This document shows positions 60,850 through 63,591 of a stretch of 64,000 nt of DNA, in pieces. Origin of the DNA: Escherichia coli. GTDB lineage: Bacteria; Pseudomonadota; Gammaproteobacteria; Enterobacterales; Enterobacteriaceae. How positions within the stretch are numbered: the stretch's first letter is position 1; each line of letters begins with the position of its first letter. Position numbers and translations under genes: made by a program. Under the pieces are notes generated by a model that was given only the letters and a program-made list of their open reading frames with translations, did no database searches and was not told where the DNA came from. The stretch lies in the NCBI RefSeq assembly GCF_003019035.1, contig NZ_CP027447.1; one strand, 5' to 3'.

Positions 60850-61491
60850 ATGCATCGCATAGACACGAAAACCGCGCAGAAGGATAAGTTCGGCGCGGGT
60901 AAGAACGGTTTTACCCGTGGTAACCCCCAGACCGGCACGCCTGCCACCGATCTGGATGATGACTACTTTGATATGTTGCAGGAAGAACTCTGCAGCGTGG
61001 TGGAGGCATCCGGTGCCAGCCTGGAGAAGGGGCGGCATGACCAGCTGCTTACCGCGCTTCGTGCGCTGCTGTTAAGCCGCAAGAATCCGTTTGGCGATAT
61101 CAAATCGGATGGCACGGTGAAAACGGCTCTCGAAAACCTTGGTTTGGGAGAAGCGGCTAAAAGGAATGTAGGGACAGGGGCGAATCAGATACCTGATATG
61201 GGTAGCTTCACGCTTTCTGTTTCAGGTACTGGATATCAAAAATTACCATCAGGTTTTATTCTTCAGTGGGGCTCAATCGGCGCACCAGGCATTGCACAGG
61301 ATGTAGTAACCCATTTCCCGATTGCATTTCCAAACAGATGTCTGCGTGTTTTGGTCTCACAAGACTACACACCAGATAGCGGGGCTGTTGGTTATATTGC
61401 CTGTGCAGGTTTTAGTCCCGACCCGGTTAAATTTATATCCAGAGCCAGTACTCCTGGCCTCGGCGCTTCATTTTTAGCGTTAGGCTGTTAA
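60850..61491 (+). CDS. Side tail fibre protein (constant N-part fused to invertible C-part)
   Basis: 213-aa ORF; inversion crossover site lies inside the gene at about codon 95. Confidence 0.7.
61127..61153. repeat. Left recombination site of invertible segment (hix/gix-like)
   Basis: ctctcgaaaaccttggtttgggagaag has dyad symmetry and resembles hix-family sites (recalled); inverted copy at 62955-62981. Confidence 0.5.
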
Positions 61492-61512
61492 TTTAGCTAT
61501 ATGGAGTGAAAA

Positions 61513-61953
61513 ATGAATTACATATATTCCGCGACTACAAACTCTTTCTATCCGCTGGAGATGAAAGAGGATTACACTCAAGCTGACTCATGGCCAGATG
61601 ATGCTGTTGAAGTTGATGAGCAAGTGTATATTGCGTTTTCCGGATTACCGCCGAAAGGAAAAATCCGTATCGCTGGAGAAAATGGTTTTCCTGCATGGTC
61701 TGAAATTCCACCGCCAACACATGAGGAACAGATTGCTGCAGCCGAACAGGAAAAGCAGCAACTGATTAATCAGGCCAACGATTATATGAACAGTAAACAA
61801 TGGCCTGGTAAAGCGGCTATTGGTCGTCTGAAAGGTGAGGAACTGGCGCAATATAATTTGTGGCTGGATTATCTGGACGCACTGGAACTGGTCGATACTT
61901 CCGGTGCGCCAGATATTGAATGGCCTACGCCTCCGGCAGTTCAGGCCAGATGA
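61513..61953 (+). CDS. Tail fibre assembly protein
   Basis: 146-aa ORF with typical Tfa N-terminus (MNYIYSATTNSFYPLEMKEDY). Confidence 0.75.
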   Translation: MNYIYSATTNSFYPLEMKEDYTQADSWPDDAVEVDEQVYIAFSGLPPKGKIRIAGENGFPAWSEIPPPTHEEQIAAAEQEKQQLINQANDYMNSKQWPGKAAIGRLKGEELAQYNLWLDYLDALELVDTSGAPDIEWPTPPAVQAR

Positions 61954-62514
61954 CATCCGGCGCGGTGCTGGTATCTGTTGCCGTCACCGCGTCAATGTAA
62001 TCCAGCACGGCGTTTAGTCGGGTGGTTTCTGTTTGCGTCAGCTTCCGTCCGGCCTGCAATTTCAGTTGAATAAGACTAATGGACGCCATTGCAGCATTAA
62101 TCAGCGACTGGCGCTGTGTTTCTGCCGCTTCTACTGCAGCACCGTGCTGTGCCTCAGTATCTGTCACCCATTTTTCCCATCCATTTATCGTATGGCGTTA
62201 ACGGTGAAAGCGTGACATAACCGTCTTTGATGGCACCGATATAATCCACTGTAACGGCAGCGCCATTTTCGGTTGAGTAAACAGTCTCATGGCGATGGTC
62301 TTCTTCATGGTGCCATCCTTCCCGTAAATACTGCCACTTTCCCCGAAATGTTTTCGCCCGGGTCAATATAAGTGGAACAAGCGGGCATACTTACACCAGT
62401 ATTAATATATTCATCAGACCAACCCGTATATTCATACGTTACTGTATCATAATAAAAACAACGCATATCACCCGGTACTGTAGCCAGCCCATTTTCATCA
62501 AAAACAGGTTTCAT
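61925..62514 (-). pseudogene. Alternative-orientation tail fibre assembly gene, split over three frames
   Basis: ORFs 62305..62514 (MKPVFDENGLA..., Tfa-like N-terminus), 62154..62366 and 61925..62167 are contiguous pieces in different frames. Confidence 0.5.
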
Positions 62515-62722
62515 TATTTAGCCCTCACCAGAAAGTTAAATGCGATGTTACGTGGCCTGACGGCAATAAAATTCACACCATCACCCACTGAATTACTGGT
62601 GTAATGGTATCGAGAGAAACCCGGCTCGTGTGCTGATATTCCATCGTGATTAGCAATCGAATGGCCGGAGCCCTCTGGATAATTACCTCCAAATTGCGAT
62701 AAAGATGTTGCTGCCTGCCAGC

Positions 62723-63010
62723 TTAATAATGCTCGCCACTATCCACCCCGCACCCATCATCCCAGATACGAATGAAATCACCCCGTGCGTCAGGTAATAC
62801 CAGCGACGGAAACACTTTCGCCAGCACAGGGTAATCAGTGGCAGAAAATTTCGCTCCGTTGAACTTCAAAAACACCATACCGGACCAGCTGTTGATTACG
62901 GTATTTGGCATTGCAGCGGAGGGCCAGAAGAACGGAACTCCAATAGCCGGAGCACCTTCTCCCAAACCAACGTTTATGAAAATGCAGAAATAACGAGCAA
63001 ATGGCATCAT
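62723..63010 (-). CDS. Alternative tail-fibre C-terminal segment (tail-collar-domain fragment)
   Basis: 95-aa ORF containing crossover-encoded GLGE and tail-collar-like motif (PDARGDFIRIWDDGCGVD); would fuse to the constant part after inversion; likely truncated. Confidence 0.45.
   Translation of the reverse strand: MMPFARYFCIFINVGLGEGAPAIGVPFFWPSAAMPNTVINSWSGMVFLKFNGAKFSATDYPVLAKVFPSLVLPDARGDFIRIWDDGCGVDSGEHY
62955..62981. repeat. Right recombination site of invertible segment
   Basis: cttctcccaaaccaacgtttatgaaaa; reverse complement shares the ggtttgggagaag core with the left site. Confidence 0.5.
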
Positions 63011-63036
63011 TCCTGCTTTTGTCAGGGAGATCTACC

Positions 63037-63591
63037 ATGCTTATTGGCTATGTACGTGTGTCAACAAATGACCAGAACACAGATCTACAACGTAATGCGC
63101 TGAACTGTGCAGGATGCGAGCTGATTTTTGAAGACAAGATAAGCGGTACAAAGTCCGAAAGGCCGGGACTGAAAAAACTGCTCAGGACATTATCGGCAGG
63201 TGACACTCTGGTTGTCTGGAAGCTGGATCGGCTAGGGCGTAGTATGCGGCATCTGGTCATTCTGGTTGAGGAGTTGCGCGAACGTGGCGTTAATTTTCGC
63301 AGCCTGACGGATGCTATTGATACCAGCACACCGATGGGGCGTTTTTTCTTTCATGTGATGGGTGCCCTGGCTGAAATGGAACGAGAACTGATTGTTGAAC
63401 GAACAAAAGCTGGACTGGAAGCTGCTCGCGCACAGGGACGAATTGGTGGACGTCGTCCCAAACTTACACCAGAACAATGGGCGCAGGCCGGGCGATTAAT
63501 TGCATCAGGCGTTCCTCGCCAGAAGGTGGCGATCATCTATGATGTTGGTATATCGACACTGTATAAGAAGTTTCCGGTCGGAGATAAATGA
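63037..63591 (+). CDS. pin: DNA invertase, serine recombinase (Hin/Gin/Pin family)
   Basis: ORF-track 63001..63591; ATG at 63037 with GGGAGA RBS; MLIGYVRVSTNDQNTDLQRNAL... resolvase N-domain with catalytic Ser and C-terminal HTH; symbol assumes the e14-type Pin orthologue. Confidence 0.85.
   Translation: MLIGYVRVSTNDQNTDLQRNALNCAGCELIFEDKISGTKSERPGLKKLLRTLSAGDTLVVWKLDRLGRSMRHLVILVEELRERGVNFRSLTDAIDTSTPMGRFFFHVMGALAEMERELIVERTKAGLEAARAQGRIGGRRPKLTPEQWAQAGRLIASGVPRQKVAIIYDVGISTLYKKFPVGDK

Follow-up and report, generated by a model that had tools for sequence, protein, structure and literature searches.

Does the tail-fibre locus at 60850–63591 of this Escherichia coli sequence hold a working DNA switch, and are the genes of its alternative state dead or merely misread? 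The window, which is the whole 64-kb stretch of DNA that was analysed, was described in an earlier note as carrying an invertible tail-fibre switch of the Hin/Gin/Pin family, with minus-strand genes that were either pseudogenes or affected by sequence indels. The locus was best explained as an e14-type invertible P segment, a working switch with one state destroyed by five genuine deletions (probability about 0.85). The host element was an e14-like temperate prophage, apparently intact, with HK97-type head and Mu-type baseplate modules, located at tRNA-Thr next to proA.

Crossover sites and invertase

Two 26-bp crossover sites in inverted orientation bracketed a segment of 1.83 kb. The left site (61127–61152), which was pix/gix-like with a 12-2-12 architecture, had the sequence CTCTCGAAAACC TT GGTTTGGGAGAA, and the right site (62957–62982), also of the 12-2-12 type, had the sequence TTCTCCCAAACC AA CGTTTATGAAAA. 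The half-site symmetry was 9/12 and 8/12, and the central dinucleotide TT/AA was common to both sites. The inverted-repeat arms at 61134–61158 and 62951–62975 were 25 nt long and 88% complementary. The exact 14-mer TTCTCCCAAACCAA occurred in the window only at 61139–61152 (minus strand) and 62957–62970 (plus strand), against a chance expectation of 0.03, and no third crossover site was found in the 64 kb. The sites matched Mu gix at 17–18 of 26 positions (18 for the left site), and both were identical at 26 of 26 positions to their counterparts in the K-12 e14 P segment. The left site fell at codons ~93–101 of a 213-aa fibre ORF. The inverted dyad sites and the position of the left one within the tail-fibre gene, as claimed in the earlier note, were borne out, with coordinates off by at most 1–2 nt.

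The invertible segment, 1,828 bp between the central dinucleotides (61141–62968), was delimited by in-silico inversion and by a relative, L045, which carried the segment reverse-complemented. Inversion had been predicted to swap the fibre C-terminus and the chaperone; accordingly, the in-silico inversion joined the 101 constant codons in frame to the alternative C-terminal part.

The serine DNA invertase gene, a pinE homologue (63037–63591, plus strand), was intact and encoded 184 residues, as assigned by Pfam, the Gin structure and identity to PinE. The catalytic Ser9 was conserved within the motif YVRVSTNDQ. The protein contained the Resolvase (175.5 bits) and HTH_7 (49.4 bits) domains, its residues 1–181 aligned with the Gin structure 3UJ3 (E = 9.5e-94), and its C-terminal helix-turn-helix matched Hin structures. 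It was identical to K-12 PinE at 175 of 184 residues (95%), and its DNA was identical to pinE of strain 2018-05-5CC, an allele that is widespread. Such invertases are already labelled pinE by annotation pipelines. The domains and the Gin match, together with the e14-identical sites and the relatives in both orientations described below, agreed with the proposed Hin/Gin/Pin-family switch. The invertase ORF lay to the right of the right site as expected, with its ATG 54 nt beyond the site, against the 56 bp given in the earlier note.

A short fixed leader, MMPFARYFCIFINVGLGE, was located between the invertase gene and the segment (62957–63010, minus strand); it was present in the ORF list and a matching product was on record. 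The frame of this leader runs on into the cassette at the invertase end, whichever it is, as with stfE and StfE2 in K-12. A Fis-dependent recombinational enhancer is presumed to lie inside the 5′ coding region of the invertase gene (63037–63240) from its position and conservation. Over its first ~200 nt, the gene hardly differed from K-12 pinE and showed strong conservation with Mu gin. When paired Fis-like sites with a 48-bp separation were sought under strict criteria, the expected pair was returned in Mu and none in the window or in K-12. A scan for promoters and terminators gave hits at no more than the chance level.

Current and silent cassettes

In the current orientation, the plus strand carried an intact tail-fibre gene (60850–61491, 213 aa), which was identified from the ORF list and the Pfam domain Gp53-like_C (54.7 bits). 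Codons 1–101 (to 61152) formed the constant part, whereas the remainder formed a gp53-like receptor-binding cassette within the invertible segment. The N-terminal 101 residues were 99% identical to K-12 StfP, and the exact 213-aa product has been recorded in 205 public-assembly blocks. The fibre gene was followed by an intact gene for the tail-fibre assembly chaperone Tfa (61513–61953, plus strand, 146 aa; Pfam Caudo_TAP, 131.9 bits), which shared its C-terminal module with K-12 TfaP. Both ORFs were uninterrupted, in agreement with the intact plus-strand pair that had been reported.

The minus-strand cassette was broken in both of its genes. The alternative chaperone gene, tfaE-like (61925–62514, minus strand), was a pseudogene with four 1-nt deletions at ~62175, ~62180, ~62316, and ~62320, each of which shortened a plus-strand run of CCC or CCCC by one C. 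The Tfa described as split across three frames was indeed found as three ORFs in different frames, at 62305–62514, 62154–62366, and 61925–62167 (69, 70, and 80 codons, respectively), while the chaperone of relatives was intact with 197 residues. The alternative fibre C-terminal cassette (62514–62968, minus strand), stfE-like and of the collar type, was a pseudogene with one 1-nt deletion at ~62735. This deletion cut the cassette to 77 codons past the crossover, compared with 147 in intact relatives. The repaired cassette gave a weak Pfam Collar match of 18.8 bits, below the threshold, and Collar domains were recorded for the alleles of relatives. The alternative C-part of about 95 codons was recovered as a 95-codon ORF at 62723–63010. 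This short ORF is a C-terminal cassette, for which a start of its own is not expected. Thus, where an e14 P segment has two complete alternative cassettes, the current cassette was intact and the silent one carried five frameshifts. The locus remains of the e14 P-segment type, as a degenerate member, and does not represent a separate class of system.

The deletions were defined against the relatives L001, L019, L024, and L045, and the extra base was present at each of the five positions in all of more than 20 relatives examined. None of 1,044 complete E. coli genomes carrying the segment shared the four tfaE-like deletions, and the frameshifted sequence had no exact k-mer match in GTDB species representatives or JGI metagenomes. 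All five differences from a 99.7%-identical relative were deletions in C runs, which prompted the hypothesis of an artefact: the frameshifts would stem from sequencing or assembly errors, such as under-called homopolymers or faulty polishing of a segment that occurs in both orientations, and the alternative genes would really be intact. The loss of a single C from a short C run in every case, the clustering of the five within 560 bp of the invertible segment, and their absence from every other genome examined were in line with such errors, a pattern that long-read consensus errors can give. However, at least 12 reference-free Logan assemblies of separate SRA sequencing runs (including L007–L016) carried all five deletions and agreed exactly, at 100% identity, across the five positions; these runs may all be cultures of one clone, and they confirm the sequence, not a wide distribution. 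Elsewhere in the window (~60 kb), compared with relatives at 97–100% identity, the only uncompensated 1-nt indel was in an intergenic T-run. The runs hit by the deletions measured only 3–4 nt, and no change was seen in longer A/T runs close by. The artefact hypothesis was therefore rejected on the independent assemblies and the clean remainder of the window, and errors of this kind appear extremely improbable. Between the two possibilities that had been offered for the minus-strand genes, this comparison of sequences favours real pseudogenes.

Comparison with known systems and state of the switch

The invertible P segment and PinE of the cryptic prophage e14 in E. coli K-12 were reportedly described by Plasterk and van de Putte in 1985. 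The comparison with intact e14 and Mu segments, which had been suggested as a check, revealed the same sites, gene order, and logic as in e14, with a Gin-type invertase. The gene order ymfQ-stfP-tfaP / tfaE-stfE / pinE was shared, with a YmfQ-family baseplate gene upstream, and the site spacing was 1,830 nt here and 1,827 nt in K-12. The identical 26-bp sites were accompanied by a 95% identical invertase and a 99% identical constant fibre N-terminus. On the other hand, the prophage was complete at tRNA-Thr here, whereas K-12 carries a 15-kb e14 remnant at icd. The variable cassettes were different alleles, with gp53-like and collar-type tips only ~40–60% identical to StfP and StfE, and tfaE is intact in K-12, in contrast to the five frameshifts in the alternative cassette here.

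The Mu G segment with Gin and the P1 C segment with Cin shared with this locus a constant fibre 5′ part (Sc) and alternative C-terminal parts with their chaperones (Sv-U / S'v-U'), as well as 12-2-12 sites and an invertase gene just beyond the right site, whose 5′ end holds the enhancer (a presumed one in the present locus). However, the segment was 1.8 kb here compared with 3 kb, the fibres were much shorter, the central dinucleotide was AA instead of GA/TC, and the phage backbone was different. The Salmonella Hin/hix system of flagellar phase variation was alike in invertase family and site architecture, and the central dinucleotide of hix is likewise AA. Hin, however, flips a promoter and not alternative coding cassettes.

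The e14 P segment has been inverted experimentally by PinE and PinQ at these same repeats (PMC12529663), and both of its orientations coexist in K-12 cultures (PMC4272514). In the present locus, Pin and the Fis-bound enhancer would pair the 26-bp sites, exchange strands at the central AA/TT, and flip the 1,828 bp, with late transcription coming in via the constant fibre 5′ part. The gp53-like tip and the 146-aa chaperone would be read in the current, intact state, and the collar-type tip and the 197-aa chaperone in the other state, which appears to have been destroyed in this lineage. With five deletions in the silent cassette, inversion would yield a truncated fibre, predicted to be of 178 residues, and no working chaperone.

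Relatives were found in both orientations. In L045, with flanks 99.97–100% identical to the window, the segment was inverted and the alternative genes were intact, while L046 carried the segment in the current orientation; near-identical relatives (99.9%) thus occurred in both states. Among complete genomes, the current junction was present in 394 and the in-silico inverted junction in 71, and ETEC H10407 carried the inverted junction. The exact 129-aa product of leader and gp53-like C-part, which belongs to the inverted state, was on record in 448 blocks. These genome comparisons indicate that the cassette pair flips in nature. A Logan contig, L054, in which the 5′ part of the window pin was fused to the 3′ end of Mu gin, was set aside as a probable assembly chimera at the shared stretch.

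Whether the segment still inverts in this lineage was weighed against the possibility of a frozen relic, in which inversion no longer occurs appreciably and the silent cassette, unseen by selection, has decayed. The inverted junction was not seen in the window or in any junction-crossing Logan contig, all of which showed the current orientation, and the predicted 178-aa inverted-state fibre was not on record. The five accumulated frameshifts also imply no selection on the alternative state. Against these observations, the crossover sites were identical to the active e14 sites, the invertase ORF was intact and of the widespread allele, the enhancer region was conserved, and the 99.9%-identical relatives were found in both orientations. 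In addition, the draft assemblies L040 and L052, 100% identical to the window, broke off precisely within the left crossover site, which a culture containing the two orientations side by side would be expected to produce. A frozen relic was therefore considered unlikely, and inversion of the segment by Pin probably continues in this strain, as suggested by the preserved sites, invertase, and enhancer region.

A service to the host would give inversion another purpose, as it would make a chimera of leader and fibre tip that blocks the adsorption of other phages, as in K-12 e14. In K-12, the chimera StfE2, a homologue of this product, has been described and provides the precedent (PMC12529663). 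After inversion, the leader and the gp53-like C-part of the window would form an uninterrupted 130-aa chimera, and the form on record in 448 blocks corresponded to it from the second Met. The chimera uses the intact gp53-like cassette and would thus be unaffected by the decay of the silent one. However, the cassette of the window is a diverged allele compared with the K-12 StfP C-part (the fibres were 59% identical overall, mostly through the shared N-terminus), and the T2-blocking activity is therefore not transferable. The prophage also looks complete and functional, not cryptic. A host service of this kind was regarded as very unlikely, and a working switch with one dead state was retained as the preferred explanation.

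Mutation spectrum and meaning of the dead state

The silent cassette contained five deletions and one substitution, whereas ~15 kb of neighbouring selected genes contained 4–7 substitutions and no indel. This indel-rich spectrum of five to one departs from the prediction of simple neutral decay. The confinement of the deletions to G:C runs, and not A:T runs, was mildly significant ((25/59)^5 = 0.014). No significant strand bias of the deletions was found, as 20 of the 25 G:C runs in the region had C on the plus strand.

With no selection acting on it, the silent cassette might record the mutation spectrum of the phage itself and bear the footprint of an indel-prone process whose traces selection would remove elsewhere. 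Candidate processes would be untargeted mutagenesis by SOS-induced Pol IV (DinB) during induced prophage replication, or a single error-prone repair tract begun at an invertase-made break. The same deletion signature was sought in the decayed relatives L026, L035, and L036, and their indels were mostly in homopolymers of at least 5 nt in essential genes. These indels resemble common sequencing errors or slippage, and a general pattern was unsupported. The recorder idea was considered distinctly unlikely. If it were general, the silent halves of invertible cassettes would become a readout of temperate-phage mutational processes from genomes. The cassette was inactivated in an unusual way, through five −1 deletions in G:C runs and almost no substitutions, which could merit a survey across silent cassettes.

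The switch system itself is already known, and the locus is a further copy of the e14/Pin tail-fibre switch. The lesions in this copy suggest that the switch no longer alternates host range but turns fibre function on or off. In a lineage whose switch has a dead second state, the phage should lose part of every burst to Pin activity.

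The e14-type Pin switch and its prophage

The window was composed of an E. coli-like chromosome, including a lateral-flagella cluster, dinB, pepD, phoE, and proBA, followed by a complete prophage in which tRNA-Thr (26558–26633), integrase, head, sheath, tube, tape-measure, and baseplate genes preceded the switch. The prophage, with its integrase gene at 26648–27811 on the minus strand, was inserted at tRNA-Thr (cgt), adjoining proA, where Shigella serotype-converting phages and CP4-6 also integrate. In the chromosomal part, the Flag-2 lateral-flagella cluster (flgH–lafU, 1–14400) was intact, and the yafN–yafO toxin–antitoxin pair, located between dinB and yafP in strain EC476, was missing (about 15450).

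The gene upstream of the fibre encoded a Mu Gp48/YmfQ-family baseplate protein. The tail-fibre ORF (60850–61491, plus strand, 213 codons) encoded a C-terminal Gp53-like_C fibre domain and was followed by the tail-fibre assembly chaperone Tfa (61513–61953, plus strand, 146 codons; Caudo_TAP). On the minus strand, the second chaperone was broken into three short ORFs, each in its own frame (62305–62514, 62154–62366, and 61925–62167), and the alternative fibre piece was a 95-codon ORF (62723–63010). The invertase gene started at 63037 on the plus strand, 54 nt past the right crossover site, and encoded 184 codons with Resolvase and HTH_7 domains. Its product was aligned end to end with the Gin structure 3UJ3 (E=9.5e-94), and the catalytic serine was conserved. 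The ORF list agreed with the earlier note on the intact plus-strand pair, the minus-strand Tfa in three frames, the 95-codon fibre piece, and a Hin/Gin/Pin-family invertase gene to the right of the right site.

The region contained a single strong inverted repeat, with 25-nt arms (61134–61158 and 62951–62975) that were 88% complementary. Exact copies of the 14-nt core TTCTCCCAAACCAA occurred in the 64-kb window only at the two arms (0.03 expected by chance), and a scan of the same 64 kb found no third gix-like core. The left crossover site (61127–61152), CTCTCGAAAACC-TT-GGTTTGGGAGAA, and the right one (62957–62982), TTCTCCCAAACC-AA-CGTTTATGAAAA, both had a 12-2-12 arrangement. The inverted-repeat and core searches recovered the inverted dyad sites previously proposed to flank the segment, the left one within the fibre ORF.

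The cryptic prophage e14 of K-12 shares the gene order of the window: ymfQ, stfP (ycfK), and tfaP, then the oppositely oriented tfaE and stfE, and finally pinE. Each crossover site was identical to its e14 counterpart at 26 of 26 positions and the invertase to PinE at 175 of 184 residues, in keeping with the proposed Hin/Gin/Pin-type switch. Fibre residues 1–101 were 99% identical to StfP, whereas the variable C-parts were different alleles. The sequence that begins at the right site and extends ~200 nt into the invertase gene was almost identical to that of K-12 and was also conserved in Mu gin; this 5' stretch reportedly contains a Fis-dependent enhancer in the Hin/Gin/Pin-type invertase family. 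Over its last ~60 codons (61925–62110), the broken chaperone was identical to K-12 TfaE. Six Logan contigs (reference-free assemblies of SRA runs) ended at 62108, within the region of this stretch. Since assembly stops at this point, the stretch evidently recurs in other prophages from these samples, an illustration of the modular C-terminal domain that Tfa proteins share. The e14 P segment was experimentally invertible at exactly these repeats by PinE and PinQ (PMC12529663), and K-12 cultures hold both orientations together (PMC4272514). The switch in the window is this already known system, the e14 Pin switch.

Orientation of the segment in relatives and in this lineage

When the segment was inverted in silico between the central dinucleotides, the minus-strand cassette became an in-frame continuation of the 101 constant codons. 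The inverted junction was present at full length in 71 complete E. coli genomes and the current junction in 394. In ETEC H10407, which has the inverted junction, a collar-type fibre and a 197-aa chaperone were on the expressed strand. The expected invertase-side product after inversion, the leader joined to the gp53-like C-part (129 aa in all), was matched exactly in 448 blocks of public assemblies, and the current 213-aa fibre was on record in 205. Two sequences from public assemblies, L046 and L045, were 99.92–99.97% identical to the window over 13–16 kb; L046 had the current orientation, and the segment of L045 was reverse-complemented. This opposite orientation is, at the level of sequence, the most telling evidence that the cassette pair flips in nature. 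The in-frame fusion and the two states among relatives upheld the suggestion that inversion would swap the fibre C-terminus and the chaperone.

In the window, the crossover sites, invertase, and presumed enhancer region look intact. Every contig of this lineage that crossed a junction was in the current orientation, and the 178-aa fibre of the inverted state was not on record in the public-assembly protein look-up. Contigs of two drafts 100% identical to the window, L040 (GCA_048683685.1) and L052 (GCA_020350545.1), stopped at 61132, inside the left crossover site, and those of several relatives ended at 61132–61137, as seen across L048–L053, a series that includes L052. Many Illumina drafts of this prophage break off precisely in this site. 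These stops are one hint of activity, suggesting that the cultures used for sequencing contained the segment in mixed orientation; a second cassette copy elsewhere in those genomes could also have caused them.

Logan contig L054 (SRR27538941_2525; window 62386–63389) matched the window exactly as far as 63389 and then continued into the 3' third of Mu gin plus com; it could encode a pin/gin hybrid invertase but is probably a de Bruijn chimera. The ends of several other Logan contigs fell at 63387–63389. Directly after the invertase, a minus-strand gene running off the window end (63649–64000) encoded the C-terminal part of a PD-T4-3/LEM-3-like GIY-YIG anti-phage defence protein (PADLOC E=2e-55). 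In relatives, the same slot next to pin held other defence cargo, namely a retron Ec67-type RT (L001), Avs2 (L002), McrA (K-12 e14), and HEPN or RES genes, and this prophage end looks like a defence-gene hotspot.

Deletions in the silent cassette

The silent cassette, composed of the tfaE-like chaperone (61925–62514) and the stfE-like fibre C-part (62514–62968), had a single substitution (62445) against its closest relatives (L001/L028, 99.7%; L019/L046, 99.9%; L024; and L045) and had lost 1 nt at each of five places, about 62175, 62180, 62316, 62320, and 62735. Each deletion was the loss of one C from a CCC or CCCC run, and the extra base was present at all five positions in every relative compared (>20). 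The relatives encoded an intact chaperone of 197 aa (or 200 aa), and their alternative fibre after inversion was 248 aa, whereas that of the window stopped at 178 aa. None of the 1,044 complete E. coli genomes holding the chaperone segment matched it at ≥99% identity; the best two reached 98.5%, the value given by four missing bases.

Consensus errors were considered as a rival explanation. Reference-free contigs drawn from 12 or more separate sequencing runs encoded exactly these frameshifted products (69, 80, and 94 aa) and were 100% identical to the window over 60444–63389, a span that takes in all five deletions. No comparable indel was found in the rest of the window: against strain EC476, 25 kb of chromosome had a single intergenic T-run of different length and two 3-nt indels that kept the reading frame, the prophage showed only paired alignment wobbles against three relatives, and 21.7 kb was 100.000% identical to the independent NCBI draft L040. 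Moreover, the C runs were only 3–4 nt long. The independent contigs, the clean rest of the window, and the short runs argue against consensus errors and for deletions that are real and specific to this lineage. Between the pseudogene and the indel error that the earlier note had left as a choice, the assemblies favoured real decay, and the silent half of the switch is, as judged from sequence, genuinely pseudogenised.

Over 47849–64000, 4–7 substitutions and no indel separated the window from its nearest relatives outside the silent cassette, compared with one substitution and five deletions within its 1,056 bp. Selection explains the absence of frameshifts in the expressed genes, which comprised about 15 kb of adjacent indel-free phage sequence, but does not explain why indels should outnumber substitutions 5:1 in unselected DNA. 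In mutation-accumulation work on E. coli, the ratio of indels to substitutions is roughly 1:10. All five deletions were in G:C runs, which constituted 25 of the 59 runs in the region, A:T runs being more numerous, and two pairs of deletions were 4–5 nt apart. Purely as ideas, the cause could be –1 frameshifting of the Pol IV/SOS type while the induced phage replicates, or a single error-prone repair tract. The C-run deletion signature was not shown by other decayed relatives. With the rest of the system known, this indel-only decay pattern is the sole thread worth pulling.
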